Shown piece by piece: positions 179-48,907 of a DNA stretch of 53,928 nucleotides; position 1 is the stretch's first letter; each line of letters opens with the position of its first letter. A program made the position numbers and the translations under genes. The notes under the pieces were generated by a model. It was not told where the DNA came from. It searched no databases and worked only from the letters and a program-made list of their open reading frames with translations. Where the stretch lies: contig JAYVCB010000163.1 of NCBI GenBank assembly GCA_043750195.1, positions 1-53,928 on the forward strand, read 5' to 3'. This DNA comes from Planctomyces sp. (GTDB lineage Bacteria; Planctomycetota; Planctomycetia; Planctomycetales; Planctomycetaceae).

Positions 179-793
179 ATGGCTTACACGTTGCCCGAAT
201 TGCCTTACGCGGAAAATGCGCTCGAACCACACATCGACGCAAAGACGATGAATATCCATCGGACGAAGCACCATCAGGCTTACATCAACAACGTCAACGG
301 GGCGCTCGAAAAGCATCCGGAGCTGGCGGGGAAGTCGGTTGAGGATTTGGTCCGTGGGCTCGCGACGGTCCCGGAAGACATTCGCACGGTCGTCCGCAAC
401 AACGGCGGAGGACATGCCAATCACTCGTTGTTCTGGACGGTGATGAAGCCGAATGGCGGCGGTGAGCCGACCGGCGCGCTGGGCGAGGCGATCACCAAGG
501 CGTGTGGCAGCTTCGCGGCGTTCAAAGAGCAATTCGCCAAGGCCGCGACGACTCGGTTCGGCAGCGGCTGGGCTTGGCTGTCGGTCGATGCCAGCGGCGG
601 GTTGATGGTGGAAAGCACCGCCAATCAAGATTCGCCGCTGTCCGACGGACACACGCCGATTTTGGGGCTCGATGTTTGGGAGCACGCTTACTACTTGAAT
701 TATCAGAACCGCCGGCCGGACTACATCACCGCGTTCTTTAATGTCGTCAACTGGGATGAAGTCGCCCGCCGATACGCGGCCGCCAAGAAGTAG
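179..793 (+). CDS. sodA: Mn-type superoxide dismutase (Fe/Mn SOD family)
   Basis: 204-aa ORF with [21 protein letters not shown] (Mn-type signature) and [18 protein letters not shown]. The ATG is preceded by ggggaga. Confidence 0.93.
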
Positions 794-821
794 TGCGTCG
801 TCAAGACTTGAAACATGGGTT

Positions 822-886
822 GTGAGCGGCAAGGCGTTAGCCGCCGATCAGGCAGAATCAACGGCGGCTAGCGCCTCGCCGCTCAC
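822..886. repeat. Imperfect 24-bp inverted repeat (REP-like hairpin) downstream of sodA
   Basis: gtgagcggcaaggcgttagccgcc (822-845) pairs with ggcggctagcgcctcgccgctcac (863-886). There are 2 mismatches and a 17-nt loop. Confidence 0.8.
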
Positions 887-943
887 TCCCATGAATCCTT
901 GAAGACGCAGTTGTCTCTTTGGACTGAACCTCAAAGACTTAAA

Positions 944-3183: not shown

Positions 3184-3191
3184 GATGAAGT

Positions 3192-3254
3192 CAGATTTCA
3201 GATTTGAGATTTCAAATGTCAGATTTCAAATTTGAGATTTGAGATTTGAAATAC
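3192..3254. repeat. Nine tandem heptamers [C/G]A[G/A]ATTT, AT-rich, inside the tad operon
   Basis: Units read cagattt cagattt gagattt caaatgt cagattt caaattt gagattt gagattt gaaatac. They fill most of the 77-nt gap between the cpaF stop and the tadB start and also have dyad symmetry (gatttcaaat / atttgaaat). Confidence 0.95.
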
Positions 3255-3260
3255 TGGAGT

Positions 3261-4613
3261 TCAGACCGTGGCTTGGTAGTTGACGCCGGAGCTCAATTCG
3301 CGGGACAGGAAGATCCCCTTGGGAGGTTCGTAGCCCATTGCGCTCAGGCGTTTGAAACAGATCGGTTCGTGGCCGGTTGAATAAAACGCGCCGCGCGCTT
3401 TCCCATCCGGGCCGATGCCGGTCATGCGGTACACAAAGATGTCTTCGATCAAGTACGAGCCATCGCGGCAGCCGCAGAGTTCAGAGACACGCGTCACTTT
3501 GCGTTCGCCGGTGCTCAAGCGCGACATGTGGACCAAGACATGAATCGCCGTCGAGATGTATTGCCGAGCGATCGAAGCCGGCAGATCCACGCCAGAGAGC
3601 GCGATCATCATCTCCAACCGATCGAGCGCGTCGCGCGTGTCGTTGGCGTGAACGGTGCTCATCGAGCCTTCGTGGCCGGTGTTCATGGCTTGCAGCATTT
3701 CCAACACTTCGCCGCCGCGAGCTTCGCCGACGATGATCCGATCCGGCCGCATTCGCAGACTGTTTTTCAATAAGTCGCGCTGATTGATCTCTCCTTTGCC
3801 TTCCACGTTGGCCGGCCGCATTTCCAACGAGACAACGTCTGGCTGCTGCAACTGCAATTCGGCCGTCTGCTCGATCGTGATGACTCGCTCGGTCGGCGAG
3901 ATGAAGCGGCTGACGTTGTTGAGCATCGTCGTCTTGCCAGCACCGGTGCCGCCGCTGATCAGCACGTTCAGCCGAGCGCGAATCGCCAAGATCAGGAAGT
4001 CGGCCATTTCCGGCGCGAGCGAGCCGAATCGAACCATGTCCTCGAACACCAGCGTGCGCTTGGCGAATTTACGAATCGAGATCGTCGGCCCCTTCAAAGC
4101 CAGGGGCGGGATCACCGCGTTCAGACGCGAGCCATCCGGCAGCTTGGCATCGACCATCGGCGAAACTTCGTCGATGCGCCGACCCGCTCGGCCGACCAGC
4201 CGGTGGATCAAACGCATCAAGTGCTGATCGTCGGCGAAGCGAATCTCGGTCGCTTCTAAGAGGCCGCGACGCTCGACGAACACGCGGTCCGGGCCGTTGA
4301 CCAGCACGTCGCTGACCTCCGGATCGTTCATCAGCGGCTCCAGCGGACCGAAACCGTAGATCTCGTCCATGATCTCGCGAACCATCAGGTCGCGCTGCTC
4401 CGGCGGTAACGCGACCGCCTCCATCGTGCAGAGATGCGTGGCCAAACCCCGCAACTGCGCACGCAGATCGTTCTCGTTGAGCTGTCCCGCCTTCGACAAG
4501 TCGATCGCGTCGATCATCCGTCGGTGCAGATGCGTCTTCAGCCGCTGAAACGCCTGGCGTCCATCGGTTGGTTTATTGAGTGTCGATTCCATGATGAGTG
4601 ACTCCAGTTCCAC
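3261..4613 (-). CDS. cpaF: CpaF/TadA-type pilus assembly ATPase
   Basis: 450 aa with Walker [22 protein letters not shown] and the [18 protein letters not shown] His-box region. GTG 4613 directly abuts the TAA of the upstream gene; an alternative ATG lies at 4592. Confidence 0.95.
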
Positions 4614-7500: not shown

Positions 7501-7517
7501 TTCGCGACGCGAACAAC

Positions 7518-7568
7518 GTAGACGAGTCACTCCGTAACTCGAATCGAGTCACGGAGTGACTCGTCTAC
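7518..7568. repeat. GTAG-headed REPIN-like hairpin (family gtagacgagtcactccgt)
   Basis: Perfect 18-bp stem, gtagacgagtcactccgt (7518-7535) / acggagtgactcgtctac (7551-7568), with a 15-nt loop. The same 18-mer recurs at 38722-38739. Confidence 0.9.
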
Positions 7569-7569
7569 T

Positions 7570-8145
7570 TTAGAACCCCGGAAACTTCGGCAGCTTCCAC
7601 AGCACGATGACCCATGTCGCCAACGCCACCGGCGGTGCATAACCCATGACCCGCCGGGCTTGACGTTTAACGGCAGTTTCTGCTGCTGGCGGTAGCCCAT
7701 TCGGCGATTGGCCTCCCGCGAGATAAACCTCTTTGGTCCGAAACAGCCCGTGTGTCAAAACGCTGAAGGCCATCACTCCGACTGTGCCGAGAATCACGAA
7801 GATCGTGCTCAGAATCAGCACCATGCAGGTGGGCTTAAATCCGATCCAAACGCTCAACGCCCCCATCAGCTTCACGTCGCCACCGCCACCGCCGCCGATC
7901 ATCCACAAGACCCACATCATCCCGAACCCGGCCGCAAATGCCGCAGCCGCGTCGATCAATCCGGGCCGGCCGACTCCCTCGCCAAGCTGATTGAACAACG
8001 CCTGATACAGCAGTCCCGCGCCGAAGATCGGCAGGGTGATCTTGTTCGGAATCTTCTTGAGCCGGATGTCGCTGATCGCCGTCGAAAGCGTGAAGGCTCC
8101 GACGCAGGCCAAGTACACCACCAATTGCAAACTCAGTTCTGGCAT
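7570..8145 (-). CDS. cpaA: A24-family prepilin peptidase CpaA/TadV
   Basis: ORF trimmed to ATG 8145 (MPELSLQ...). Polytopic membrane protein with DIRLKKIPN and GGGGGDVKLMGAL, the two Asp contexts of type IV prepilin peptidases. First gene of the tad operon. Confidence 0.85.
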   Translation of the reverse strand: MPELSLQLVVYLACVGAFTLSTAISDIRLKKIPNKITLPIFGAGLLYQALFNQLGEGVGRPGLIDAAAAFAAGFGMMWVLWMIGGGGGGDVKLMGALSVWIGFKPTCMVLILSTIFVILGTVGVMAFSVLTHGLFRTKEVYLAGGQSPNGLPPAAETAVKRQARRVMGYAPPVALATWVIVLWKLPKFPGF

Positions 8146-8675: not shown

Positions 8676-11039
8676 ATGACTGCCGTGCCTCTCTCACTCG
8701 GCCCAAGATTTCTCGTCACCGCAATGTCGGCAGTTCTGAGCCTGATGATCGTGGGTTGTGGCGAACCGGTGCGTCCCGATCGGACGATCGAGTTCTCTCG
8801 CGATGGAAAGCAGGTCGCATTCCAACACGATCAAGAAGGAATCTTTGTTGCCGATCCTCACGGCGGTCCGGCCACGAAGATTTTTCAGCCGGATGAAACC
8901 GTCCTGGCCACCAGCCGTCCGCTGACCAGTCCCACTGACGGACGGTTGCTGTTTGCCACCGCACAACCGCTCGACGAAACCGAGCCGCGTCTCGCGCTTC
9001 CGGCCGGCCCGACACCGGCTGAAGGGCAGATCGTCGGTCGGATTCCGGTGCGCTTCATATGCTGGTTGCGCGAAGAACCGCAGGCCGATCATCCGGCCGA
9101 GGTGAGGAAACTCTTCAACGCGAAATGTGGGCATGTCGGCTATGTGTCAGCGGGGCTTGCGGTGCGCTGGCATCCGGACGGGAAGCATGTGCTATTCGTG
9201 GCCGCACTGGAGGACCGCCCCGATCAACACTCGATCTTTGAATTCAATTTGGAGTCCGAACAAACGCGGCGAATCTTTCCTCACTCTGGGCGCGCCATCC
9301 TGTGCGATTGGACTCCGAGCGGCTCCGCATTGGTCTGCGTGGTGGGAAACGGAGTGAATCAAAACCAGTCCTCACCCGCAGCGCCGGACGGCATCTGGAT
9401 CGGATCGCCAGACAAGAAAGATTCGTGGTGGCATGTGCCAGAGTCCGAGCAGTTGTCGTCCGGCGAACTGCCGTCGATGATCGAGTCGTTGCGAGCCAGT
9501 CGCCCGGCATGGACGAGAGATGACTCGCGGTTCGCATTCGTGTCACGCATGCCGAGCGATCCGTCGGAAACGACAATCAAACATCGGCTGCATCAGGTGG
9601 AATTCGCCAGCCGCACGATCAGCACGGTGGCTGAGTCGGACGGATTGTTCGCCGATCTGCACTGGTCTCCCGACGGCCGGCGATTGGGATTTCTCACACA
9701 GCCATCGAACGCCTCCGCGTCGCTCCGAATTCTCGAACCGACCGGAACAATTTCGGACGTGGCCGCGAGCCAACCGATCCGCAAATTTGCTGGGTTCGAT
9801 GCGACTGGCCGAAAGCTCGCTTACGTTGCGGTCAGTCCAATGAGTCCTCCATTGGAGTCGCCGGGGTGGGCGTTGCTGCTGAAGCCCGATCCGTTGTCGC
9901 TCGACAGCGTGTGGATCGCCGATGCCGATCTGGCCAATGCGAGCCGAGAAGTTTTCTCCGGTATGAGAGTGACCTTTCCCCTCTGGTCGCCCACCGAGGA
10001 TCGGCTCTCACTCTGGCTGACCTTCTCTCCGCGTTATCGCTCGCTGCTGTCGATGCTTCGCCAGTGGGGCCTGTGGCCGGGAGATCCCGCCGCGACCATC
10101 GACATCGGAACGGGAGAGGTTTCGTGGCTGGCCGTCTCACCGCAGGAAGAATTGCAGATCGGCCACTTTCATTTGCTGAAACGCAATCACGCGGAGGCTT
10201 GGCGTTGGTACGAGCAAGCTCGCCAGAAACTGCCGACAGCGCAATCGCCTCAGAACTGGATGGAGTTCACACAGCGGGTCGGCGCTCCGGAGAACTCGCA
10301 ACTCTTCGAGTTCCTCTGCCTCAAACGGTTGGGCCGCGACGACGAAGCAACAGAGAAGTTTTTGGAGTTCGAGCAGAGCTTCTTTCCATCCGCCGATTCA
10401 ACCCCAGAAGCTCAAACGCTGGATGCGACCGACGTCATGTTCGGTGCGATGGGACCGCAAGCCGAATTGCTCAAACATTTGATCCACGACTTGTACGTGG
10501 CCGAAGTCTTTCTGAGCGTCGATGCCCTGGACGATGCGCTGACGTATTTCCGTGCCGAGCCGCAACGCCCCGCCAGCGACGACGAGACGTTGAGTCGAGC
10601 GATTGTCCTCGCCCAACTTCTGCTGATCGCTCGCGACGCCGACGGTTATCTCAAGCACGCCACAAACGTCATCAGGCCGCTCGCTCTGCGGATGTGGAAG
10701 AAGCCCGCCGGCCAGCCGGAGAATGCCAACTTCGTGTTGCAGACAGCGACCGGGTTGTGTCTCGCTCCGTTATTCCGTTCGGATTTTCTGAGCCGCGTGT
10801 CGGACGCCGCGCTGCAAGAGAACATTCTTCTCTGGAAGGAAGAGCGAGGCCGTCTGGAAAGCGGTCTTCCAGCCGTTGCGGTTGATCTGATGCTGCGTGC
10901 CGCGGCGTTGAAACGGAACGACTTGGCCGAAGTGCAGGCTGCCGAAGAACGGATCGCTCACAACTCCGCCGGACGCGATCTGTTCGTCGGCAAGTCCATC
11001 GACGACGGGCTGGCCGGTTGGTTTGGCTTATTGCCTTAG
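8676..11039 (+). CDS. Lipoprotein with PD40/TolB-like beta-propeller repeats and a helical C-terminal half
   Basis: ORF 8475..11039 trimmed to ATG 8676. Signal peptide with lipobox LMIVGC. Repeats SRDGKQVAF, HPDGKHVLF, SPDGRRLGF and ATGRKLAY. The stop TAG (11037-11039) lies inside the terminus of the MITE-like element. Confidence 0.7.
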   Translation: MTAVPLSLGPRFLVTAMSAVLSLMIVGCGEPVRPDRTIEFSRDGKQVAFQHDQEGIFVADPHGGPATKIFQPDETVLATSRPLTSPTDGRLLFATAQPLDETEPRLALPAGPTPAEGQIVGRIPVRFICWLREEPQADHPAEVRKLFNAKCGHVGYVSAGLAVRWHPDGKHVLFVAALEDRPDQHSIFEFNLESEQTRRIFPHSGRAILCDWTPSGSALVCVVGNGVNQNQSSPAAPDGIWIGSPDKKDSWWHVPESEQLSSGELPSMIESLRASRPAWTRDDSRFAFVSRMPSDPSETTIKHRLHQVEFASRTISTVAESDGLFADLHWSPDGRRLGFLTQPSNASASLRILEPTGTISDVAASQPIRKFAGFDATGRKLAYVAVSPMSPPLESPGWALLLKPDPLSLDSVWIADADLANASREVFSGMRVTFPLWSPTEDRLSLWLTFSPRYRSLLSMLRQWGLWPGDPAATIDIGTGEVSWLAVSPQEELQIGHFHLLKRNHAEAWRWYEQARQKLPTAQSPQNWMEFTQRVGAPENSQLFEFLCLKRLGRDDEATEKFLEFEQSFFPSADSTPEAQTLDATDVMFGAMGPQAELLKHLIHDLYVAEVFLSVDALDDALTYFRAEPQRPASDDETLSRAIVLAQLLLIARDADGYLKHATNVIRPLALRMWKKPAGQPENANFVLQTATGLCLAPLFRSDFLSRVSDAALQENILLWKEERGRLESGLPAVAVDLMLRAAALKRNDLAEVQAAEERIAHNSAGRDLFVGKSIDDGLAGWFGLLP

Positions 11040-11154
11040 AGCGTCTAACGAAGAGAAATCTCAGTCGCAGGAGCGACTGAGCTACGTAGGCGAGTCGCTC
11101 CTGCGACTCGCATTCAGACGCCCGTCTCTGATTCATTCTGTAAGAGGCTCTTAG
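11035..11154 (-). mobile_element. 120-nt MITE-like palindromic element, copy 1 (inverted relative to copies 2 and 3)
   Basis: Termini are cttagagcgtctaacgaagaga / tcattctgtaagaggctcttag. The core is tcagtcgcaggagcgactgagCTACGTAGgcgagtcgctcctgcgactcg, two head-to-head GTAG hairpins. It aligns along its length with 19877-19996 and 36145-36264 and fills the whole gap between two convergent genes. Confidence 0.8.
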
Positions 11155-12164: not shown

Positions 12165-12245
12165 GTAGGTCAGCCTTTCCAGGCTGACCCGATCAACGAC
12201 CGGCGTGATTTGGCGCAATCGGGTCAGGCTGGAAAGCCTGACCTA
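12165..12245. repeat. GTAG-headed REPIN-like doublet (ggtcagcctttccaggctgacc type)
   Basis: gtaggtcagcctttccaggctgacccgat (12165-12193) pairs with atcgggtcaggctggaaagcctgaccta (12218-12245). Each arm is itself a hairpin. It overlaps the last codons and stop of the His-rich ORF. Confidence 0.9.
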
Positions 12246-14517: not shown

Positions 14518-14553
14518 TGCCGAATGGCGGTGAAGCCGCAGATATGTCGCCGT

Positions 14554-14632
14554 CATCGCTCCGCGTGACGAGCCGAACGCTTCACCGACGCGATTTGGCC
14601 ATTCGGCTCATCACGCGGAGCGATGATGGCTA
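14554..14632. repeat. REPIN-like doublet, family CGCTCCGCGTGAyGAGCCGAA (intergenic sibling of the intragenic copy at 32761)
   Basis: catcgctccgcgtgacgagccgaa (14554-14577) pairs with ttcggctcatcacgcggagcgatg (14602-14625). The right arm continues into atggCTAC. The TAG stop of the minus-strand hydrolase gene (14630-14632) is the TAG of that GTAG head. Confidence 0.9.
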
Positions 14633-15604
14633 CGTTGACGCCGGCAGCACCCAATCGCGCAACTGCGTCTGCAACCAATCGCCGTTGCCGGTCGCGAGGT
14701 AGCCGAGATGCCCGCCTCCCTCGGCGATGTGCAGCCGCACGTTGGCCGGTGGAGAGAGACGCTCGAAGGACGTGATCGGGATCAGCGGGTCGTTGCGTGA
14801 GGTCAGGATCAGCGTCGGGACTCGGATCGCGGGAATGAATTGCTCGGAGCTGCACCGCTGGTAGTAATCGTCCGCATTGCGATAGCCGGAACGCGGAGCG
14901 GTGTATTGGTCATCGAACTCGACGAGTCGGCGTGGTGTCCGAGCAAACGAGGGGGGCAAAAAGTCGATTCGTTGCCGCTGAAGCTCACGCAAGCGTTGCA
15001 ACAACTGCCGCACGAAGTAGGCGTCGTAATGCCGCTGCGGCCAGCGCGACAGGCCGTAGGTGCAACTTGCCAAATCAATCGGCGGATTGATCGCTGCTGC
15101 TCGAACGAGTTCCAAGGGGACTCGTTCAGGAGCCTCACCCAGCAATTTCAAAACGATGTTGCCGCCTAAAGAAAATCCGAACAACGAGACCGGTGAATTG
15201 GGACACCACTCGATCACCGCCCGCAACACCGCGAGCACATCGTCCGAGCAGCCTGCGTTATACGGCTTCAGTGCCAATCCGAAACCGGCTCCGCAGCCGC
15301 GCAGGTCCAATCGAAACGTGCGGACGCCGTGCTCGTTGAGCATTGCCGACATGCGGACCAAGTAGGAACTGCGATGACATCCGGCGAGTCCGTGCAGCAT
15401 CACGACGACCGGGCCTGCATTCGGCCAGTCCCGTGGGGAGTCGTCGTGAACGACCAGCGTGTCGCCGTCAGTCAAAGGGATATGGCGAATCACGGCACGT
15501 TCGTCGGGCAAGCGGCCGGGGAAGAATGCTCCGGCGAGCGTTTGGCGATGACCTCCCGCCAAGGCCCAGTGAGATCGGAATGGTGGAATTGTGATCGTCG
15601 GCAT
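14630..15604 (-). CDS. Alpha/beta-fold hydrolase (YheT/ABHD-like)
   Basis: ORF 14630..16366 trimmed to ATG 15604 (MPTITIPPF...). Contains MLHGLAG and the nucleophile elbow GFSLGGN; 324 aa. Confidence 0.85.
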   Translation of the reverse strand: MPTITIPPFRSHWALAGGHRQTLAGAFFPGRLPDERAVIRHIPLTDGDTLVVHDDSPRDWPNAGPVVVMLHGLAGCHRSSYLVRMSAMLNEHGVRTFRLDLRGCGAGFGLALKPYNAGCSDDVLAVLRAVIEWCPNSPVSLFGFSLGGNIVLKLLGEAPERVPLELVRAAAINPPIDLASCTYGLSRWPQRHYDAYFVRQLLQRLRELQRQRIDFLPPSFARTPRRLVEFDDQYTAPRSGYRNADDYYQRCSSEQFIPAIRVPTLILTSRNDPLIPITSFERLSPPANVRLHIAEGGGHLGYLATGNGDWLQTQLRDWVLPAST

Positions 15605-19205: not shown

Positions 19206-19284
19206 TTTTCTCCCTCCATTTTGGCCAGCTCATTCAAGATCTTGATGTTGCTGGCGAAAAATGTGGGGCGGAAAATGAAGGCAG
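19206..19284. repeat. Imperfect palindrome of the gctggcggaaaatgaagg family
   Basis: ttttctccctccattttggccagc (19206-19229) versus gctggcgaaaaatgtggggcggaaaatgaaggcag (19250-19284). Related copies lie at 24810-24880 and 36032-36125. Confidence 0.7.
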
Positions 19285-19285
19285 A

Positions 19286-19804
19286 TCAATCGAGAGTTGG
19301 ATGAGAATGGCAATTCGATCGATACCATCGATAAGCGATGCGGAACGGCGGCGAGAATTGTTCGGGAGCACGTGCCAGCCAGTCGTCGATTTCAGTCAGT
19401 TCGTAAAACGCGCCGCCGGCGATCTCGCCGGGATCGAACTGCGGCGGCGTGTCGGTGATGGTGCGATAGAGGACCGTGAACTCGTTCGCCGTCTCCCGCC
19501 CGGCGGGAAAGTTGGCGAGCCGTTCGATCGGTGCCGTCAGGCCGAGTTCTTCCTGCAACTCGCGTGGTGCGGTCTCGTCGTAGTTTTCTCCCGCAGAGAC
19601 ATGTCCCGATGCGGATGACGTGTAACACAGCGGATACTCGTCCTTCGTCGCCGATCGCTGCTGCAACAGCAACCGGCCGCGTGAATCAAAGACGAAGATC
19701 GACACCGCTCGGTGGAAGAATTTCCGACGATGAACTTCGGATCGAGCCATCTGGCCGATCACTTGGTCTTGGTCATCAACGATGTCGAAGAGTTCTTCGG
19801 ACAT
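19286..19804 (-). CDS. NUDIX hydrolase
   Basis: 172 aa with a complete Nudix box, GHVSAGENYDETAPRELQEELGL (G-x5-E-x7-REUxEExGU). Confidence 0.9.
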   Translation of the reverse strand: MSEELFDIVDDQDQVIGQMARSEVHRRKFFHRAVSIFVFDSRGRLLLQQRSATKDEYPLCYTSSASGHVSAGENYDETAPRELQEELGLTAPIERLANFPAGRETANEFTVLYRTITDTPPQFDPGEIAGGAFYELTEIDDWLARAPEQFSPPFRIAYRWYRSNCHSHPTLD

Positions 19805-19876
19805 ATGAGTTCGCTCTTTGTGACCGCATTCATGCGGTCGAATGAAAAGGCCCCGATGAATCTGGGCACTACAGGG

Positions 19877-19996
19877 CTAGTAGCGCCTAACCGAAGGAAT
19901 CTCGATCGACGTCTTGAATGCGAGTCGCGGGAGCGACTCGCCTACGTAGCTCAGTCGCTCCTGCGACTGAGATTTCAATTCGTGAGACGCACTATG
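19877..19996 (+). mobile_element. 120-nt MITE-like palindromic element, copy 2
   Basis: ctagtagcgcctaaccgaaggaat...gaatgcgagtcgcgggagcgactcgcCTACGTAGctcagtcgctcctgcgactgagatttcaattcgtgagacgcactatg. The stop of the minus-strand nuclease gene (19992-19994) lies in its right terminus. Confidence 0.8.
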
Positions 19997-21679: not shown

Positions 21680-21779
21680 AGCGATCCGTCATGAGCTTGG
21701 CCAGCATCAGAAAGTCGTGTCGCGCGGTTTCGTTTCATTGGTAGGGCGTGCGATCGTTCTTGTGAGCGGAGGTCTGACC

Positions 21780-23036
21780 ATGAAAGCGAATTGGTTTTGC
21801 CGTGGCATCGTCGTGCTTGTGTTCTGTGTGTTGCGCAGTCCCGTTGATGCCGAGGAGCTTGGATTTCCGAAGGGCTGCGTTGAACTACAAAAAGTGCCGT
21901 CAGAATCACAAATCGTGTTCGATGACACATTTTCGAGCAGGGACTCCATCCTGTTCCGTCTGTTTCGGACATCGGGGACGTTCGTGGCTTGGGACACGGA
22001 TACCGGGAAATGGCTGGCGAGGCGGTCGGCTCCCAATGCGCTCGCCCACGAGTGGCAGTTTTCTCCTGACGGAAAACTGCTGGCCGTGCCGGTTCATGGC
22101 TTCGCCAGGATCGTCCAGTTGTTTGAGGTCGGGGCAAAGGATCAACAGGGAGTGCCGCAGCTACGACTCATCACCGAATTGCAGACAAAACTGACTCCAC
22201 TCAAAAAGGGACAGCCGGATCCGAATCCACCCTGGATGCCATACCTAAAGGTCGCGTGGACTCCCGATAGCAAGACGTTGATCGTGCGATACAACTACCA
22301 CCGCAATACGACCGAGTCTCAAATCCTATTCTGGTCGTTCACCGATAAGCCGAGTGTCTTGGCTGACCCAAACGAGGACGATCAGGGAGCAAGAGCCTGG
22401 AAACCTTGGGCGAAGCTGGAATTTGAAGAGCTTGTGCAAATCGCGGTGTCGCCGGACAACCGAACGCTTGGGGTGATCGAACATTTTGTTCGCCCTCCCA
22501 ATGGATATTTCTTCGATCTTCAAACCGCCCAACAGCGCGAAAAATTCGACTTTGACCGAAACCGAGACCTGAAGAATCCGAACGTCGGCGATGCTGGGAA
22601 TTACATCCCACAGTTTTCCGCAGACAGCAAGACTTTGGCGGTTCATGGGCACCGTTACTTCACACTTTGGAACACGGATCCGCCAGCGCCACGAGTCAAC
22701 ATGCTTCGCCGAGACTTCAGCGAAATCATGGGAACCTCGCACGACTTCGCTTTCACTTCTGACAACCGATGGCTGCTGACGTGCAACATTGCTCGAAATG
22801 AAGAGTTTCTCCGCCGCAAAGGAGGAGTGCTGCAAGTTCGAGACGCGCAAACCGGAGACGTTCGCCACGAAGTGAGCTTCCCGGAACAGCTTGGTCTGCT
22901 GTACCGAATCAGCGACCTGCCTGACCATCGAGTGTTGCTTCGATTTTGGTCGCGCAAGGGATACCGCCAGTTCTTGTGGCACACCGACGACCTCCTCCGC
23001 TACGCTGTCGAACACGGCACGCCCCCGCCGCGTTGA
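21780..23036 (+). CDS. Secreted beta-propeller-like repeat protein, function unknown
   Basis: ORF trimmed to ATG 21780 (signal MKANWFCRGIVVLVFCVLRSPVDA). Repeats FSPDGKLLAV, WTPDSKTLIV, VSPDNRTLGV, FSADSKTLAV and FTSDNRWLL. GC looks somewhat lower than in the neighbours, from hand counts of a few lines. Confidence 0.6.
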   Translation: MKANWFCRGIVVLVFCVLRSPVDAEELGFPKGCVELQKVPSESQIVFDDTFSSRDSILFRLFRTSGTFVAWDTDTGKWLARRSAPNALAHEWQFSPDGKLLAVPVHGFARIVQLFEVGAKDQQGVPQLRLITELQTKLTPLKKGQPDPNPPWMPYLKVAWTPDSKTLIVRYNYHRNTTESQILFWSFTDKPSVLADPNEDDQGARAWKPWAKLEFEELVQIAVSPDNRTLGVIEHFVRPPNGYFFDLQTAQQREKFDFDRNRDLKNPNVGDAGNYIPQFSADSKTLAVHGHRYFTLWNTDPPAPRVNMLRRDFSEIMGTSHDFAFTSDNRWLLTCNIARNEEFLRRKGGVLQVRDAQTGDVRHEVSFPEQLGLLYRISDLPDHRVLLRFWSRKGYRQFLWHTDDLLRYAVEHGTPPPR

Positions 23037-23062
23037 GATTGATTTCGTGCATTGGTGAGAAC

Positions 23063-23653
23063 ATGCCACAAGTCGTCGTTCTTGGTGGATCGAACGGAGC
23101 CGGGAAGACCACCGCCTCACGCGCGGTGTTGCGGGATGTTTACCAGATCGGCACGTTCGTCAACGCGGACTTCATTGCTCAGGGATTGAATGGATTCGAT
23201 CCGGAAACTGTGGCCTTTCAAGCTGGCCGATTGATGCTCAAGCGTTTGAAAGAACTGACCGATGAGCAGCAGGATTTCGCGTTCGAGACGACATTGTCCG
23301 GGAAGGCATACGCAACTTGGCTGCGGAGATTGCGTGAGTCAGGCTATCGCGTCGCTTTGTTGTACTATTGGTTGGAATCCCCGGAACTCGCGATCGCGCG
23401 AGTCGCGAGCCGGGTGAGGCGTGGCGGTCATCATGTCCCCGCCGACACGATTCGCCAACGCTGGTCGAGAAGCGTCGAAAACTTGTTTCGACTCTATTTG
23501 CCATTGGCGGATGACTGGTCACTTTTCAACAATACGCACGATGGTGAGCCAAGGCTGATTGCCATCGGTCATGGCGCTTTTTCGCGTGACATCCACGATC
23601 CAAGCAGTTGGGAACTCCTGACGAAAGCCGCGAATCATGATCGACCGAGTTAA
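23063..23653 (+). CDS. Zeta-toxin/COG4185-like P-loop kinase-fold protein
   Basis: ORF trimmed to ATG 23063. Contains VVLGGSNGAGKTT (Walker A), FVNADFIAQGL, FAFETTLSG and RVRRGGHHVPADTIRQRW; 196 aa. Confidence 0.8.
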   Translation: MPQVVVLGGSNGAGKTTASRAVLRDVYQIGTFVNADFIAQGLNGFDPETVAFQAGRLMLKRLKELTDEQQDFAFETTLSGKAYATWLRRLRESGYRVALLYYWLESPELAIARVASRVRRGGHHVPADTIRQRWSRSVENLFRLYLPLADDWSLFNNTHDGEPRLIAIGHGAFSRDIHDPSSWELLTKAANHDRPS

Positions 23654-23849
23654 AAATCCTTCCGTTCCAGTTTCTTCCGAGGAACTCGAAGCCGCCGCGC
23701 AACGGGCGGCTCGAGAAGCCGTGCTCGAACATGCTCGGCTGGGATTTCCAGTTTGCGGGCTTGAGGATGGTCAAGTCCGTTGGTTCAGCCCGGCTGAAAC
23801 GCTGGCAAGACACGTTCGACCGACCCCGGAACCGCAGACGAACTCGTAA
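23637..23849 (+). CDS. Small ORF overlapping the 3' end of the zeta-like gene (candidate partner/antitoxin)
   Basis: 70 aa. Its ATG 23637 lies 17 nt inside the upstream gene, which suggests translational coupling. Acidic/helical N-terminus, then [17 protein letters not shown]. No family recognised with certainty. Confidence 0.45.
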
Positions 23850-23875
23850 AGCGACATCTCGAAAGGTTTGAGTTC

Positions 23876-24796
23876 GTGAAGTCTACTCACAAGCATCTGC
23901 GTCCCGAAGTCATCTCGCGTGTTGCTCGTTTGGAAATCCAAGCGCGGCAAATCGTCGAAGGTTTTTTGTCGGGCGGGCATCGCAGTCCGTACTTTGGGCA
24001 GTCGGTCGAGTTCGTGCAGCATCGCGAGTACGTCCCTGGTGACGACGTGCGGCGCATCGACTGGAAGGTGTGGTCGAAGACCGACAAGGTTTATGTGAAG
24101 CTCTACGAGGAAGACACGAACTTGCGGACGACGCTGATCGTGGACCTCAGCGAGTCGATGCGGTTCGGCAGCGGAGCGAGTCGTTCACCGCACGGGTTGG
24201 CGACGAAGTACGACTACGCCTGTACGACGGCCGCGACGCTGGCGCATTTGCTACTGCGGCAACAAGACTCGGTCGGGCTGGTGGCGTTCGACGAGGCGAT
24301 CCGCACGCAAATCCCGCCGCACACCAAACGATCGCATCTCAACGATATCTTGCTGGCCCTCGAAGCCGAAGAGCCGAAGCAGAAGACTGACATCTTCGAC
24401 GTGCTGCGCCACGTCGCCGAGGCTCAAGGCCGCCGAGGCATGATCGTGCTGATCTCTGATCTGCTCGTGCCGCGGCCGGGGCTGTTCAAAGGACTGAAAC
24501 TGCTGCGACATCGCGGCCACGACGTGCTCGTCTTTCATGTGCTCGACGACGAGGAACTCGACTTCAACTTCACCGGCACGACGAAGTTCGAGGGCATGGA
24601 AGAACTCGGCGACGTGCTCTGCGATCCGCGCTCGCTGCGCGACGGGTATCTCGCCGCGATGCACTCGTACTTGGACGAACTCCGCCGCTTCTGCGCTCAG
24701 CAAACCATCGACTACCGCACCATCCGCACTAGCGAGCACATCGACGCCGTCCTGCTGGCCTACATGCACCACCGCATCGGCATGGTCCGGCATTGA
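23876..24796 (+). CDS. DUF58 domain protein (MoxR-associated, vWA-like)
   Basis: 306 aa with a GTG start. Contains [33 protein letters not shown], the DUF58 hallmark. Confidence 0.9.
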
Positions 24797-24809
24797 GATT
24801 CTTGCGGCT

Positions 24810-24880
24810 CCATTTTCCGCCTTTCATTTTTCGCCAGCTCAAAAACAAGCTGGCGGAAAATGAAGGGCGAAAGATGATGG
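24810..24880. repeat. Imperfect palindrome of the gctggcggaaaatgaagggcgaaa family
   Basis: ccattttccgcctttcatttttcgccagc (24810-24838), loop, then agctggcggaaaatgaagggcgaaagatgatgg (24848-24880). Confidence 0.75.
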
Positions 24881-24950
24881 CGGATGTGGGCGAGGTTCAA
24901 ATATCTTGTCGCTGTTTGATGCGCGCGAAACCATCTTCGGAGGCGGAGAC

Positions 24951-31941: not shown

Positions 31942-32080
31942 GCGGGGCGGCGTCAGCCCCCCGGTTGTCATTAGCCATCGTGACCACCGGGGGGCAGACG
32001 CCCAATGGCATTCACGTTGTGAGCGGCACGGCGCTAGCCGCCGGTATTTCGCGAGTGCCATTGGGCTGACGCCGCCCCGC
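31942..32080. repeat. 139-nt composite nested palindrome
   Basis: Outer perfect 18-bp stem gcggggcggcgtcagccc (31942-31959) / gggctgacgccgccccgc (32063-32080). Inner stems are ccccccggt/accgggggg (31957-31965 / 31986-31994) and cccaatggca/tgccattggg (32001-32010 / 32057-32066). Confidence 0.85.
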
Positions 32081-32102: not shown

Positions 32103-33848
32103 CTACGGTCGCAACGGCGCAATGACTCGCGAGGCATGTTGCTTGTTGAGCTGCACGGTGTTCGTCGCCGTGACAGCGTTCGCGGGGAACTCCAAGCCGA
32201 GCGGTTCGCCGGTATTCGGGTTCGGTTCAAAGAACGGAGCGCCGGTGCTGGCGACGGTGACTCGGATGCGATGTCCCTTCGCGAAGATTTGGCTGATCCA
32301 GCCGACTTCAAAGGCAACCTTCTCGACCTTGCCGGGCGTGAAGAACACTTCCTGCTCGAAGCCGTCGCGATAACGGCCGCGGCGGATGTAATCGACCAGC
32401 AGGATCGAGCGACCGTCGGGATAAACGTCACAGACGCGGACGATGAAGTCGGTGTCCTTTGCCGATGACGTGACGAATAACTCCGTCTTCACGAGTCCCG
32501 TCCATTCCACCGGTTCGGTGAGCGGTTCGGTCGTGAAGGTGCGGACCTCGGCCTGCTCTTCAAACTTGCGAGCGTCTGCCGCGCCGGGAAAGCCCTTGTT
32601 GTTCGGGATGTTGGCCGGCTTCAGCGGATCGGCCAAAAATGTTGCGTCGGCGTCGGCTTCGGTCGGCGATGAATTCGTCAGCCTGCCGCCGTCGCGCAGG
32701 AAGTACGACGTCGGTGTCGCAGAGATCGGCCAGTCATTCGTCTCTCGCCAGATGTTGCCAACGTAGCCGTCACGCTCCGCGTGACGAGCCGAACGCTCGT
32801 TCGACGCCGATCCTGAATCCGATGCCGGTGAAGCGTTCGACTCGTCTCGCGGAGCGAGACGGCTACGTTCCTCACCCATGACGTAGTACCGCACCGTCGG
32901 GTCACGATCGACACCGTTGTCTCGCCCCTTCAGCCAGAAGTCGAACCAACGAACGAGATGGCTCTCAGCATCGAACTTTGCGTTCTCTGGAAAGGTCATC
33001 TCGCTGACCTTGTTGGTGTTCTTGCCGAGATATCCGCCGTGCAGCCACGGGCCGATAAGCAGTTGTTGCTTGCCGCGCGAATTCGGGCCGGCACGATGCT
33101 GCCGCCCGCGATAGCTCTCGATCGAGCCGATATTCATGAAGTCGAACCAACTGCCGATCGTGAAGCAGGGGACGTCCATCTTGTCGAAGTGCCGCGAGCA
33201 ATCTTCCTGCTTCCAATAGTCATCGAACGTCGGATGCTTGAACCACTCGACCCGCAACGCGAGGTTGTGAGCCGGCTCGCGGCAGACGGCGTCCATCCCT
33301 TTGAACCGCTCCGGCCGAGTCGTCCCACCGATGCGATAGCCTTCTTGGTAGAGGCTCAATCCTGTGTCGATCATGTATTGCGCGACCAGATGCGGCGGGC
33401 GAGTCACGGCTAAAAAGTTCTGAGCGAACCCAGCCTGCGAACTGCCGAAAGTACCAATCTTTCCCGTGGACCATTTCTGTATGGCGAGCCATTCGACTGT
33501 GTCGTATCCGTCCTGCAATTCGCCCCAGCCGAGCGCTCGATAGCCGACCCATGTCCCTTCCGACTTTCCCGCTCCGCGATAGTTCTCGGCACAGACGACA
33601 TAGCCGGCCTTCGCCAGCCGAGCGTTTCCCTGCCGAGTCCCAACGCCTTTCAAGTCGGCATAGCGCTGCTCGTACAACACCGGCCACGGGCCGTCACCCG
33701 GCGGGAAGTAAAGATACGCCGAGAGCTTCGTCCCATCGCGCATCGGAATCATCATCTGCTCTTCGCGCACAACGCCGAGGTCGATCGGTTCCTGCGCGAA
33801 GGCCGACGACAGGGAGACGAGGCAGAATCCAATCAAAAGCACGCGCAT
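32103..33848 (-). CDS. CocE/NonD-family (S15 X-Pro dipeptidyl-peptidase-like) hydrolase, secreted, with a repeat-derived in-frame insertion
   Basis: 581 aa with a signal peptide. Contains PVLYEQRYAD and GTFGSSQAGFAQ (nucleophile region), and a C-terminal jelly-roll part. Codons for ERSRLAPRDESNASPASDSGSASNERSARHAERDGYV are encoded by the palindrome at 32761-32868. Confidence 0.88.
   Translation of the reverse strand: MRVLLIGFCLVSLSSAFAQEPIDLGVVREEQMMIPMRDGTKLSAYLYFPPGDGPWPVLYEQRYADLKGVGTRQGNARLAKAGYVVCAENYRGAGKSEGTWVGYRALGWGELQDGYDTVEWLAIQKWSTGKIGTFGSSQAGFAQNFLAVTRPPHLVAQYMIDTGLSLYQEGYRIGGTTRPERFKGMDAVCREPAHNLALRVEWFKHPTFDDYWKQEDCSRHFDKMDVPCFTIGSWFDFMNIGSIESYRGRQHRAGPNSRGKQQLLIGPWLHGGYLGKNTNKVSEMTFPENAKFDAESHLVRWFDFWLKGRDNGVDRDPTVRYYVMGEERSRLAPRDESNASPASDSGSASNERSARHAERDGYVGNIWRETNDWPISATPTSYFLRDGGRLTNSSPTEADADATFLADPLKPANIPNNKGFPGAADARKFEEQAEVRTFTTEPLTEPVEWTGLVKTELFVTSSAKDTDFIVRVCDVYPDGRSILLVDYIRRGRYRDGFEQEVFFTPGKVEKVAFEVGWISQIFAKGHRIRVTVASTGAPFFEPNPNTGEPLGLEFPANAVTATNTVQLNKQHASRVIAPLRP
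32761..32868. repeat. 108-nt GTAG-headed REPIN-like element located inside a coding sequence
   Basis: acgtagccgtcacgctccgcgtgacgagccgaacgct (32761-32797) pairs with agcgttcgactcgtctcgcggagcgagacggctacgt (32832-32868). There are 3 mismatches in 37 and a 34-nt spacer. It belongs to the same family as 14554-14632. Confidence 0.9.
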
Positions 33849-36031: not shown

Positions 36032-36125
36032 GGGCTGGCGGAAAATGGAGGGCGAAAAATGAAGGCAGGCGACAGACCACTTGTCGTCTGTGGTTCATCT
36101 TTCGCCCTTCATCTTATGCCAGCCC
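36032..36125. repeat. About 94-nt palindrome of the gctggcggaaaatggagggcgaaaaatgaagg family
   Basis: gggctggcggaaaatggagggcgaaaaatgaaggcaggcgacagaccac ... gtggttcatctttcgcccttcatcttatgccagccc. Confidence 0.8.
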
Positions 36126-36144: not shown

Positions 36145-36264
36145 CTAAGAGCGTCTAACAGAATGAAACCCGATCGACGTTCGGAATGCGAGTCGCGGGA
36201 GCGACTCGCCAACGTAGCTCAGTCGCTCCCGCGACTGAGATCTCATTCTGTGAGACGCTCTAAG
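36145..36264 (+). mobile_element. 120-nt MITE-like palindromic element, copy 3
   Basis: Termini are ctaagagcgtctaacagaatga / tcattctgtgagacgctctaag (20 of 22 complementary). The core is gaatgcgagtcgcgggagcgactcgccaacgtagctcagtcgctcccgcgactgaga. Confidence 0.85.
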
Positions 36265-37968: not shown

Positions 37969-37976
37969 GATTCCCC

Positions 37977-38039
37977 GTAGCTCGGCTCTCCAGGGCCGAG
38001 CAAACCTGCGCCGATCTCGGCGCTGGAGAGCCGAGCTAC
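37977..38039. repeat. GTAG-headed REPIN-like palindrome
   Basis: gtagctcggctctccag (37977-37993) pairs with ctggagagccgagctac (38023-38039). An inner pair gccgag/ctcggc is also present. Confidence 0.9.
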
Positions 38040-38251
38040 AGGCTTTTCGGATCGCTTCTGTTTTCCGATGGTGACCCGGGGCCGAGTCAAACCGGCTGTG
38101 CTCCACTCGCACAGCAGCGCGTTCCGGAACGCCAACGAGGCTGACGCTCCCGGTATTTACTTTGAGCGGAATGGCGCTAGCCACCGGTGTCGTGGGATCG
38201 ATTTCCCATGTCAAAACCGGCGGCGAGCGCCATGCCGCTCGCCACCGAGAT

Positions 38252-38683: not shown

Positions 38684-38720
38684 CTTCGTTCAACGTCAAA
38701 CCTCGCCGGGACGCAAGAAA

Positions 38721-38774
38721 CGTAGACGAGTCACTCCGTGATTCGAATTCGAGTCACTCCGTGACTCGCCTACG
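38721..38774. repeat. GTAG-headed palindrome, same family as 7518-7568
   Basis: cgtagacgagtcactccgtgattcgaattcgagtcactccgtgactcgcctacg. The 18-mer gtagacgagtcactccgt is identical to 7518-7535. Confidence 0.9.
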
Positions 38775-38790
38775 TTGTGGCTACACCGCA

Positions 38791-48731: not shown

Positions 48732-48864
48732 GGCACATCCTCCGAAAAGCTGAGATTCAGCCGAGTATTCCGCTGTCAGACGTGAGCGGCTTCTCTCGAC
48801 TGACGAAACGTCGACGAGGAGTCTAGGCAGGATCAGCGACGATGAAAACTAATGACGCCCGTTG

Positions 48865-48907
48865 CCGAGTCGCTCCGCGACTCGGATCGGCGTCGCGGAG
48901 CGACGCC
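48865..48907. repeat. Two tandem small hairpins related to the MITE core, followed by a CTAC head
   Basis: ccgagtcgc tcc gcgactcgg (48865-48885) and ggcgtcgc gga gcgacgcc (48889-48907), then gctacgtta, where tta is the stop of the next minus-strand gene. Confidence 0.8.

Follow-up and report, generated by a model that had tools for sequence, protein, structure and literature searches.

A 112-bp MITE-like element built around a GTAG-tagged REP doublet, and its empty sites, in Planctomycetes

Described relatives of the element

GTAG-tagged REPs are defined as stem-loops with a stem of 6-13 bp, a small loop, and an unpaired GTAG at one end, and families of them have been reported in Planctomycetes, namely in R. 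baltica (Di Nocera et al., 2013, PMC3733652). In Opitutus terrae they form "tail-tail" dimers with the GTAG inside and the units only 1-2 bp apart (PMC3733652). The closest precedent for the element described here is the GTAG dimer within a long palindrome, as in GTAG-15 of Anabaena variabilis and CGTC-1 of H. neapolitanus, for which no "empty" palindromes have been found (Di Nocera et al., 2013, PMC3733652). Both there and here an inverted pair of GTAG-plus-hairpin units is central in a longer conserved palindrome, which is intergenic and mostly downstream of genes. Unlike those dimers, the present one has a 0-bp spacer and is a heterodimer with three compensated stem-base pairs, and the 3-bp target duplication and exact empty sites documented below are a point outside that account (PMC3733652). 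The R. baltica families GTAG-20 and GTAG-21 belong to a different sequence family and encode other peptides. The element is a new sequence family, of a kind (a GTAG REP doublet in a longer palindrome) that is already described.

REPINs (Bertels and Rainey, 2011, PMC3116915; Nunvar et al., 2010) are likewise inverted doublets with rare singlets and two strongly conserved REPs, and they share with the present element an alternative twin-hairpin fold, hundreds of copies, and an extragenic location. In contrast to REPINs, its GTAG motifs point inward without a spacer, it has true terminal inverted repeats (TIRs) and a target-site duplication (TSD), and no RAYT was found in the limited sequence searched. 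Bacterial MITEs derived from DDE elements, such as Correia/NEMIS, RUP, Nezha, and Chunjie (PMC10969869), resemble it in being near 100-250 bp, non-coding, and intergenic, with TIRs, a short TSD, strong secondary structure, and presence/absence between strains; they differ in that here the centre is best conserved and is itself a REP doublet common to elements with different arms. A 3-bp T-A-rich TSD (TAA/TTA) and ends that begin with GAG are also found in the IS5 family (IS1031 group) and in PIF/Harbinger with its Tourist-like MITEs. Canonical Harbinger elements, which are related to the IS5 family, have been described as producing 3-bp TSDs (PMC12730594).

Three copies, their empty sites, and the duplicated target

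The window, the whole stretch of DNA that was analysed, comprises 53,928 nt of a Planctomyces sp. contig (JAYVCB010000163.1). A sequence-only reading had placed three copies of a 120-nt repeat at 11035-11154, 19877-19996, and 36145-36264, and both the coordinates and a full-length alignment were verified, with a mean column identity of 85% and a near-invariant stretch across the three copies in the central ~60 nt. The two halves made up of GTAG and hairpin (26 nt each) occur exactly three times in the window within three mismatches, against 0.00 expected from shuffles, and a profile search of the window with the 112-nt element (nhmmer) returned the three known copies and no others; the three repeats are confirmed as real copies, none being expected by chance. 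The proposed TIR exists, with a different length: the supposed 22 nt consist of an 18-nt TIR, TAA as a 3-bp direct repeat, and a single base of flank, so that the element proper is 112 nt in each copy, not 120. The left TIR reads GAGCGTCTAACAGAATGA, and TIRs are also present in at least 13 copies from other MAGs. The features are as follows.

11039-11150, minus strand: copy 1, element proper (112 nt), by alignment; absent in loci L099-L102; nhmmer score 112
11036-11038: copy 1, left TSD (TTA); the empty site of L102 has one TTA
11151-11153: copy 1, right TSD (TTA), which serves the minus-strand DUF1559 gene as its TAA stop
11060-11111: copy 1, core, with REP-a at 11060-11085 (minus) and REP-b at 11086-11111 (plus), joined at CTAC-GTAG
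about 19880-19991, plus strand: copy 2, element proper (112 nt); nhmmer 19882-19991; uncertain by 1 nt, 19881-19992 being also possible
19877-19879: copy 2, distal target copy (CTA; TAG on the gene strand), from comparison of the window with L097
19992-19994, minus strand: copy 2, proximal target copy, identical with the TAG that stops the BFN/DUF151 nuclease gene
19920-19971: copy 2, core, with REP-b at 19920-19945 (minus) and REP-a at 19946-19971 (plus)
36149-36260, plus strand: copy 3, element proper (112 nt), the best preserved copy
36146-36148: copy 3, left TAA direct repeat, from sequence and flank statistics
36261-36263: copy 3, right TAA direct repeat, from sequence and flank statistics
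36149-36166, plus strand: copy 3, left TIR, GAGCGTCTAACAGAATGA
36243-36260, minus strand: copy 3, right TIR (reverse complement GAGCGTCTCACAGAATGA); the two TIRs are complementary at 17/18 positions
36188-36239: copy 3, core, with REP-b at 36188-36213 (minus; its GTAG mutated to GTTG) and REP-a at 36214-36239 (plus)

At copy 1, which lies between two convergent genes, the element is precisely absent from four orthologous loci (L099-L102) of relatives with 85-90% nucleotide identity and the same gene order. In these empty sites the two convergent genes overlap in TTAG, with the site of L102 reading ..TTGCC TTA GAAGTC.. around a single TTA, and the window carries the 112-nt element and a second TTA in addition. 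The convergent genes end, as had been described, with TAG at 11037-11039 and with a minus-strand TAA at 11151-11153; the left TTA together with the first element base, G, forms the TAG stop of the 784/854-aa gene. Similarly, copy 2, situated between the stop of the BFN/DUF151 gene (at 19992-19994, again as described) and the start of a NUDIX gene, is empty in L097 and L098 (85-90% nucleotide identity), where the equivalent of window positions 19874-19991 (118 nt) is missing and a single TAG is kept, the gap in the relatives adjoining the TAG of the nuclease gene. In reverse complement the window reads CCATAG[TGCGTC...GCGCTAC]TAGCCC at this place and L097 reads CCGTAGCTT; the direct repeats can be set as CTA/CTA or TAG/TAT, the register of the duplication being ambiguous by 1 nt. 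The BFN protein of the window, taken with either of two alternative starts, has no exact protein match on record. Copy 3 lies in the divergent intergenic region between an SF1 helicase gene and a Pyr_redox gene.

What had been read as stops inside the termini of the element is therefore a duplicated target, completed by the terminal G of the element. With one copy of the target left on either side and G as the first base of the element, both neighbouring stops are regenerated. The proteins are thus unchanged: their lengths are 784 and 304 aa at copy 1 and 132 aa at copy 2, whether the element is there or not. To the question of whether the native stops had been replaced by the element, the answer is thus no: the target overlapped the stop codons, and its duplication restored them.

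The repeats are TTA/TTA at copy 1, where the empty site confirms them, and TAA/TAA at copy 3. For the 13 copies that have both ends, the flanks of 3 nt match as direct repeats at 26 of 39 positions, compared with 19.3 by permutation (p = 0.006). The bases next to the repeats hardly vary on the side of the element (G and C) and do vary on that of the flank, and this sets the duplication at 3 bp. The target consensus is about Y-TWA-R, with TTA, TAA, TAA, and TTA in the best-preserved copies, and in this genome of 59% G+C such A/T-rich targets lie largely at stop codons. The element has in this respect the 3-bp TSD at TWA/TNA targets of IS5 and PIF/Harbinger, with the exception of copy 2 and some diverged copies, whose flanks are non-TWA; several diverged copies have matching non-TA flanks (TCC/TCA, AAG/AAA).

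These comparisons show that the whole 112-bp unit is what is present or absent at orthologous sites. The view of the repeat as a non-autonomous, MITE-like element is supported, copies 1 and 2 being precisely absent at syntenic sites with one 3-bp target left, and this presence/absence polymorphism, which had been named as the point on which mobility would stand or fall, favours mobility. The unit has the TIRs, target-site duplication, and polymorphism of a MITE, as well as its small size (<~300 bp) without coding capacity: the 112 nt contain only long spurious frames sharing a repeat-encoded peptide, and the common peptide ECES(R/Q)ERLA(Y/N)VAQSL... noticed earlier is indeed present in three overlapping ORFs. 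Presence/absence of a copy without long arms was also seen between L076 and L081, where the boundaries are not definable. Logan contigs from four metagenomes were compared with copy 1 in search of element-skipping reads and gave no joints there, because contigs break at the repeat.

The twin-hairpin core and its spread

The core had been correctly described as a pair of GTAG hairpins that meet at CTAC-GTAG. Its two GTAG-tagged REP hairpins form a "tail-to-tail" heterodimer with spacer 0, the units being GTAG-CTCAGTCGC and GTAG-GCGAGTCGC, each with GTAG, a 9-bp stem, and a 3-4-nt loop; both have the short stem (6-13 bp), small loop, and unpaired GTAG end of a GTAG-tagged REP. The hairpins REP-a and REP-b differ in three stem-base pairs in a compensated way, so that a single strand is expected to fold as twin hairpins on a TIR stem and not as one long hairpin; the predicted fold of copy 3 likewise has two 9-bp hairpins closed by the TIR stem, with folding z-scores of -8.9 (DNA) and -4.8/-4.2 (RNA). 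One long cruciform hairpin was rejected, as the loop bases show all four combinations without covariation and the stems are internally compensated. An 11-nt likeness of REP-a to the tRNA D-arm was judged coincidental. A tRNA search with ARAGORN found nothing.

The element is not confined to the three sites: about 16 planctomycete MAGs carry the exact core, at no fewer than 89 loci in all, and in source-like metagenomes contig depths add up to ~8900 over the core and to ~13 over the flanks. This wider spread, and the stronger conservation of the core than of the arms, had not been seen in the sequence-only reading. The loci had been chosen for carrying one exact 26-mer from the core. Among them, the parts of the core outside that 26-mer reach 0.93-0.97 in conservation, as against 0.76 in the TIR and 0.59 in the spacer, and the choice of loci partly accounts, as an ascertainment effect, for the many copies in which the arms have decayed or are unrecognisable and the core is intact. 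In one pair of orthologous copies, the core has 0 mismatches in ~58 nt while its surroundings are 12-15% diverged. A core kept well beyond the arms across many species implies sequence-specific recognition, probably by the mobilising enzyme, a RAYT-type protein, or a host factor.

Window-type copies have a constant architecture, the core pattern lying 52 nt from one end and 34 nt from the other; another arm type, with equally constant distances of 43/47 nt, carries the same core. Several copies have an AM_0621-type arm variant, C-TA-GTGCGTCT...AGACGCAC-TA-G, at whose flanks TA fits about as well as a 3-bp repeat. Doublets far outnumber singlets, with 1 true singlet among about 95 copies, and exact REP-b singlets (CTAC without a following G) are found only 3 times in all JGI metagenome contigs; in one of these matches the two units are arranged the other way round, with GTAG outside, and stand 62 nt apart. 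The copies lie mostly downstream of genes (47 in tandem, 13 in convergent, and 8 in divergent contexts), with no bias in orientation relative to the flanking genes (22 against 25) and with orientations mixed within the one 54-kb window and within 8-kb blocks. As in GTAG REPs, copy number is high and the repeats are mainly extragenic, inverted dimers, all copies being TT dimers. The window also holds at least five other GTAG/TCC-loop REP doublet families, a related arm scaffold with a different palindromic core lies at window positions 790-905, and L103 has, at the site of copy 1, a related arm scaffold with a different GTAG REP pair.

Candidate movers and what the element means

The best explanation, with a probability of about 0.6, is that the repeat is a 112-bp non-autonomous MITE with a GTAG-REP doublet, moved in trans by a cut-and-duplicate (DDE-type) transposase. 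Its hosts are freshwater and sediment Planctomycetes, and the transposase would be encoded elsewhere in the genome and make 3-bp staggered cuts, as expected of a DDE enzyme. The A/T-rich targets lie largely at stop codons, and the duplicated target restores both stops. The best guess for the enzyme would be the IS5 family (IS1031-like) or PIF/Harbinger relatives; the IS1031 group has 3-bp repeats and GAG ends. Counting against the DDE reading, a classical MITE is best conserved at its terminal repeats and here the reverse is seen, no transposase was found in the sequence searched, and many copies have unrecognisable arms with an intact core.

A conserved centre is in keeping with recognition of the REP doublet by a protein, which has been proposed for RAYTs and REPINs, and in the corresponding, less likely account the inverted doublet itself would be the replicative unit, moved as ssDNA by a single-copy RAYT (Y1/HUH) encoded elsewhere, with the arms as lineage-specific extensions of the palindrome. 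A GTAG tag on each hairpin is typical of RAYT-associated REPs (PMC3733652), a twin-hairpin "clover" fold is likewise predicted for REPINs (PMC3116915), and the scarcity of singlets, with the inverted doublet as the conserved unit, the conservation of the REPs above all surroundings (as predicted for recognition by a RAYT dimer), the further REP doublet families in the window, and the report of many RAYTs with cognate repeats in R. baltica all speak for it. At both empty sites, however, the whole 112-nt unit with TIRs has moved and a 3-bp target has been duplicated, unlike in the IS200/IS605-like mechanism, where insertion involves neither a target duplication nor TIRs. Y1 transposases of the IS200/IS605 type do not duplicate their target. 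The duplication thus argues, for the 112-nt unit, against the RAYT or IS200/IS605-type mover that the sequence-only reading had proposed to look for, and favours a DDE-type enzyme; the mixed orientations within the window and 8-kb blocks and the lack of bias relative to genes also stand against a REPIN, as does the outcome of the RAYT searches given below. Among enzymes that do duplicate a target, an IS630/Tc1-mariner-type mover, which inserts at TA (often within CTAG) and duplicates TA, would agree with the TA in all well-preserved flanks, with the C-TA...TA-G ends of the AM_0621-type copies, and, perfectly, with copy 2. It is nevertheless quite improbable, since a 2-bp duplication leaves TIRs unequal by one base in copies 1 and 3, L003, and L084, where 3 bp is symmetric, and since the matching non-TA flanks of several diverged copies do not suit it.

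The scaffold with another palindromic core at 790-905, the other GTAG REP pair that L103 carries where the window has copy 1, and the core common to two arm types could be taken to mean that REP doublets insert repeatedly and independently into the centre of an older palindromic MITE, the loop being a hotspot and the 112-nt unit not one family. The end-to-core distances are identical within each type, though, and core-less scaffolds were absent from about 0.8 Mb, where the search gave only noise (a parallel observation exists for the long palindromes with GTAG-15 dimers of Anabaena); each composite would therefore have formed once and then spread as a unit, and repeated nesting is very unlikely. 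Even less credit is given to an immobile, conserved regulatory structure at fixed sites, such as a bidirectional terminator or an mRNA 3'-end stabiliser. The fold is very stable, most copies are downstream of genes, the REP-a hairpin followed by ATTTCATTTT fits a loose terminator consensus in one orientation only, and the core was kept after insertion in one orthologous pair; yet regulation as the sole explanation is contradicted by two of the three sites in the window, where presence or absence is precise and comes with a duplicated target, orientation is unbiased with respect to transcription, copy 3 sits in a divergent promoter region, and an Rfam scan of the element gave no match at gathering thresholds, only sub-threshold hairpin/miRNA noise. 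Individual copies may still have been put to secondary use.

The earlier statement that the window holds no transposase or RAYT gene agrees with a Pfam scan of 36 of its 45 predicted ORFs, in which no transposase family was found, and at least four larger ORFs outside that scan are syntenic with relatives' genes annotated as non-transposases. Across the window and 92 loci (~0.9 Mb), a motif screen of ORFs (HUH/YxxNP) gave no credible RAYT, and tblastn with an approximate E. coli RayT sequence gave no credible match. No transposase or RAYT lies beside the three rare REP-b singlets, and neither the window nor the 8-kb blocks around 95 copies yielded a full-length IS ending in these TIRs. When the ORFs of ~0.76 Mb around the 95 copies were clustered all against all, no transposase-like ORF recurred, and the clusters were only the multi-copy families common in planctomycetes (DUF1559 and others).

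Beside the DDE-moved MITE, a chimeric arrangement that relies on two unrelated systems is entertained tentatively, as a minor possibility, in which a DDE transposase would use the outer ends for cut-and-duplicate insertion and a RAYT-type or other sequence-specific protein would maintain the REP doublet by binding, cleavage, or copy correction. If true, this would explain the identical core across about 16 species despite diverging arms and flanks, and the arms would be a vehicle that spreads REP doublets (REPINs) with target duplication, aimed at stop codons.

In practical terms, repeats of this kind break metagenome assemblies, with contigs ending at the core, give rise to spurious long ORFs with a common peptide, and mark strain-level differences in freshwater Planctomycetes. 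Copy 1 further illustrates that an insertion on the common stop codons of two overlapping convergent genes can keep both reading frames intact. With its exact empty sites, the element shows cleanly and in checkable form, for a phylum that has been little studied, a REP doublet travelling inside a TIR/TSD element; the case bears on the way in which REPs and REPINs are moved and on the question of whether RAYTs are needed by all of them.

Anatomy and predicted fold of the element

The three stretches that a sequence-only reading had grouped as a non-autonomous, MITE-like repeat of 120 nt (11035-11154 on the reverse strand, 19877-19996, and 36145-36264) are one repeat, which aligns end to end without large gaps. 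The element within them measures 112 nt.

11039-11150, minus strand: copy 1
~19880-19991, plus strand: copy 2
36149-36260, plus strand: copy 3, the best preserved

Mean column identity across the three copies is 85%, with a near-invariant central ~60 nt, and each half of the core (GTAG, a 9-bp stem, and a 4-nt loop) has exactly three matches at ≤3 mismatches in the window, where window shuffles expect 0.00. A profile HMM of the element finds the three known copies and no others in the window. The peptide ECES(R/Q)ERLA(Y/N)VAQSL, encoded by the repeat in three long overlapping ORFs, is spurious, as had been proposed, and the genes beside the copies are real (a 784/854-aa beta-propeller/TPR-like protein, a DUF1559 prepilin-like protein, the BFN (DUF151) nuclease, a NUDIX hydrolase, an SF1 helicase, and a pyridine-nucleotide-disulphide oxidoreductase).

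Copy 3 reads C-TAA-[GAGCGTCTAACAGAATGA ... 112 nt ... TCATTCTGTGAGACGCTC]-TAA-G. Its ends are indeed inverted, and the 22 nt originally ascribed to each terminal inverted repeat (TIR) comprise an 18-nt TIR (17/18), a 3-bp direct repeat, and one flanking base. The core consists, as described earlier, of two GTAG hairpins joined at CTAC|GTAG (GCGAGTCGC-GGGA-GCGACTCGC-CTAC|GTAG-CTCAGTCGC-TCCY-GCGACTGAG), which are inverted to each other with the GTAG tags facing inward and no spacer, an arrangement termed a "tail-tail" dimer (Di Nocera et al., PMC3733652). The two REP units differ at three stem-foot base pairs (GCG..CGC vs. CTC..GAG) with full compensation inside each unit, and their first loop bases occur in all four combinations without covariation; a single long hairpin was therefore rejected, and a single strand is predicted to fold as twin hairpins closed by a TIR-TIR stem (fold z-scores of -8.9 for DNA and of -4.8 and -4.2 for RNA).

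Within the extra ~18 nt of the left arm (window 36168-36185 and its equivalents in other copies) lies AGACGTTC, which nearly duplicates the right terminus AGACGCTC and is able to pair with the left one (in locus L025, GAACGTCT...AGACGTTC forms a perfect 8 bp); the left arm may therefore hold a small hairpin nested in it or a second version of the end. In all three copies (window 19946-19957 in copy 2), REP-a, one of the two REP units, opens with GTAGCTCAGTCG, which agrees over 11 nt with the 5' D-arm consensus of many tRNAs; a tRNA origin was rejected and the likeness judged coincidental, since ARAGORN predicts no tRNA. The element has no Rfam family or tRNA match.

Empty sites, stop codons, and target duplication

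Homologs of BFN at 95-98% identity led to contigs syntenic with the window over 12.6-31 kb at 85-90% nucleotide identity, and in two of these (L097 and L098) window 19874-19991 has no counterpart: the relatives read ..GTGCCG-TAG-CTTGTTGTCGTGCCCC.., and the window ..GTGCCA-TAG-[element]-TAG-CCCTGTAGTGCCC.. around copy 2. Similarly, orthologs sharing 86-88% identity with the 784-aa protein led to four loci (L099-L102) without copy 1, in which the convergent genes share a four-base overlap, TTAG, the plus-strand gene ending in TAG and the DUF1559 gene in TAA on the other strand. The window differs from them by exactly the 112-nt element and a second TTA (..TTGCC-TTA-[GAGCGTCT...AGAGGCTC]-TTA-GAATTC..). 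The unit that moves is the 112-nt element, and the mobility first proposed is borne out by presence and absence at both syntenic sites. A profile search of ~150 kb of syntenic relatives found no copy, and both insertions are therefore specific to the window's lineage.

The stop codons reported inside the element termini are present because the target overlapped the stops: the duplication leaves the target at both ends, and the first G of the element completes TAG. No native stop was replaced to any effect on the proteins, which keep the same lengths with or without the element (784, 304, and 132 aa).

Flanks were compared for 13 copies with both ends recognizable, from the window and seven MAGs. 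The triplets flanking the TIRs match each other as direct repeats at 26/39 positions, vs. 19.3 with permuted partners (p = 0.006), for example TAA/TAA (three times), TTA/TTA, TCC/TCA, and AAG/AAA; those of copy 2 can be read as CTA/CTA or, one base over, as TAG/TAT. The G and C beside the triplets hardly vary within the element but do vary in the flank, and thus belong to the TIR, leaving a duplication of 3 bp. The insertion target is roughly Y-TWA-R.

Distribution, arm types, and neighboring repeats

Searching with an exact 26-mer across the CTAC|GTAG junction extended the family beyond the window, to at least 89 8-kb blocks from ~16 planctomycete MAGs of lakes, groundwater, glacier-fed streams, and sediments, a single MAG supplying more than 50 blocks. 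Summed contig depth in metagenomes containing the window's genome is ~8900 for the core, 100-750 for the arms, and ~13 for unique flanks. One core occurs in two arm types, the window type with 4-nt loops and arms as in copy 3, and the AM_0621 type with 3-nt loops and ~35-nt arms (CTAGTGCGTCTTCAAGGCTTGA..TTCGGGTT / AACCCGAA..AGCCTTGAAGACGCACTAG), which have only the terminal G(A/T)GCGTCT in common. End-to-core distances are constant within each type (52/34 and 43/47 nt); each composite therefore arose once and then spread as a unit. Among 16 window-type copies, column identity reaches 0.93-0.97 in core parts not used for selection, against 0.76 for the TIRs and 0.59 for the left spacer, and an orthologous insertion in two species (L025/L064) shows 0 core differences in ~58 nt, with arms and neighbors 12-15% different. 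Single REP units account for 1 in ~95 copies and for three exact matches in all JGI metagenome contigs. Gene contexts are mostly downstream (47 tandem, 13 convergent, and 8 divergent), and the copies show no bias in their orientation to transcription (22 against 25). In L091 (~2440-2600, the place of L081 7830-7960), the arrangement of both REP units is reversed: GTAG faces outward, and 62 nt separate the units. The metagenome collection yielded just three non-doublet matches, of which this is one.

REP-type repeats are very abundant in this genome, and further kinds of repeat were noted as well.

Window 19250-19291, 24797-24883, 36034-36123; L096 ~10400-10493: dispersed repeat GCTGGCG(A/G)AAAATG.GGGGCG.AAAATGAAGGCAG, often an inverted pair
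Window 12166-12245; L093 ~10400-10481: inverted pair TAGGTCAGCCTTTCCAGGCTGACC / GGTCAGGCTGGAAAGCCTGACCTA
Window 790-905: second palindromic element, with arms TAGTGCGTCGTCAAGACTTGAA ... CCTTGAAGACGCAGTT resembling AM_0621-type arms and a different central inverted pair, GTGAGCGGCAAGGCGTTAGCCGCCG / CGGCGGCTAGCGCCTCGCCGCTCAC
Window 32016-32050 (single, with its own inverted flanks GCCCAATGGCA), 38159-38250: further copies of the 790-905 core
Window 7515-7571, 38719-38776, 32760-32869, 14546-14633, 37974-38042, 48853-48905: hairpins tagged GTAG (or GTTG/GTCG) with TCC/GGA loops, at least five additional families, as inverted doublets whose GTAG tags face outward (the classic REPIN layout)

The intergenic sites of copies 1 and 2 are insertion hotspots, since different small palindromic repeats occupy them in other strains. 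The BFN-NUDIX spacer holds copy 2 in the window, a pair of the first listed repeat in the relative L096, and the TAGGTCAGCCTTTCCAGGCTGACC / GGTCAGGCTGGAAAGCCTGACCTA unit in the relative L093, and thus three different small repeats in three lineages. At the convergent junction of copy 1, a 77%-identity ortholog (L103 4590-4725) carries a different element, in which arms CTAGTGCTTTGTCAAAGCTTGA.../...TCTTTGCTTTGACATACCAC enclose another pair of GTAG REPs (CCACGTTCTGGCGAACGTGGCTAC), with two further REP-like hairpins on its flanks. One inverted pair of the first listed repeat directly adjoins copy 3.

At window 3191-3267, 7-nt units (TCAGATT/TGAGATT/TCAAATG; 14-nt spacing in the repeat search) form a short tandem array between two type II/Tad secretion genes. 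In the syntenic block at window 21680-23880, small cassettes differ among L093 (7849-8669), L096, and L097 (Zeta_toxin/AAA_33, ParE, PemK, and DUF4926/DUF6883), and the window has instead a 439-aa ORF (21717-23036) with no Pfam match. One TPR/SIR2_2-like gene in L093-L095 (17738-20074) encodes 514, 690, and 778 aa in contigs otherwise 99.9% identical, owing to a variable number of ~130-260-nt internal repeats.

Mobility and relation to known systems

The sequence-only reading of a mobile, non-autonomous, MITE-like element is upheld, with a probability of about 0.9, and refined in its TIR, its duplication, and the cause of the stop codons. Also in agreement with that reading, no transposase was found in the window by Pfam scans of 36/45 predicted ORFs (at least four larger ORFs outside the scans are syntenic with annotated non-transposase genes), and no RAYT by motif screen and tblastn. 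The RAYT searches were likewise negative across ~0.9 Mb of loci, and the surroundings of 95 copies contained no recurrent transposase-like ORF.

The insertion boundaries and the 3-bp duplication make a DDE-type enzyme that acts on the TIRs, and whose staggered cuts would leave the duplication, the favored mechanism, with moderate confidence. Repeats of 3 bp and GAG ends are features of the IS1031 group of IS5. Harbinger elements of the canonical type, which are related to the bacterial IS5 family, duplicate 3 bp (PMC12730594). Movement may alternatively be driven by a RAYT or depend on both kinds of enzyme, a model kept in play by the unusual conservation of the REP doublet, the near-absence of singlets, and a genome full of other GTAG/TCC-loop REP doublets. 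The conservation and the scarcity of singlets match what Bertels and Rainey predicted for a RAYT dimer that recognizes a doublet, as does the twin-hairpin fold (PMC3116915). Purely RAYT-driven movement is countered by the duplication itself, since Y1/HUH enzymes of the IS200/IS605-RAYT type are not known to make any.

GTAG REPs have been described previously, including tail-tail dimers, heterodimers, and several families of the planctomycete R. baltica (Di Nocera et al., PMC3733652), which differ in sequence from the present element. The closest precedent is given by many GTAG-15 dimers of Anabaena variabilis and all CGTC-1 dimers of H. neapolitanus, which lie inside long conserved palindromes never found without a REP (PMC3733652), the same pattern as here. 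The 3-bp duplication, exact empty sites, stop-codon targeting, and core invariance across species are new relative to that work. The element represents a new family, from Planctomycetes of freshwater and sediment, that belongs at once to two known kinds, MITEs and GTAG-REP dimers in long palindromes, and it would be of greater interest if its core and arms depended on two different enzymes.
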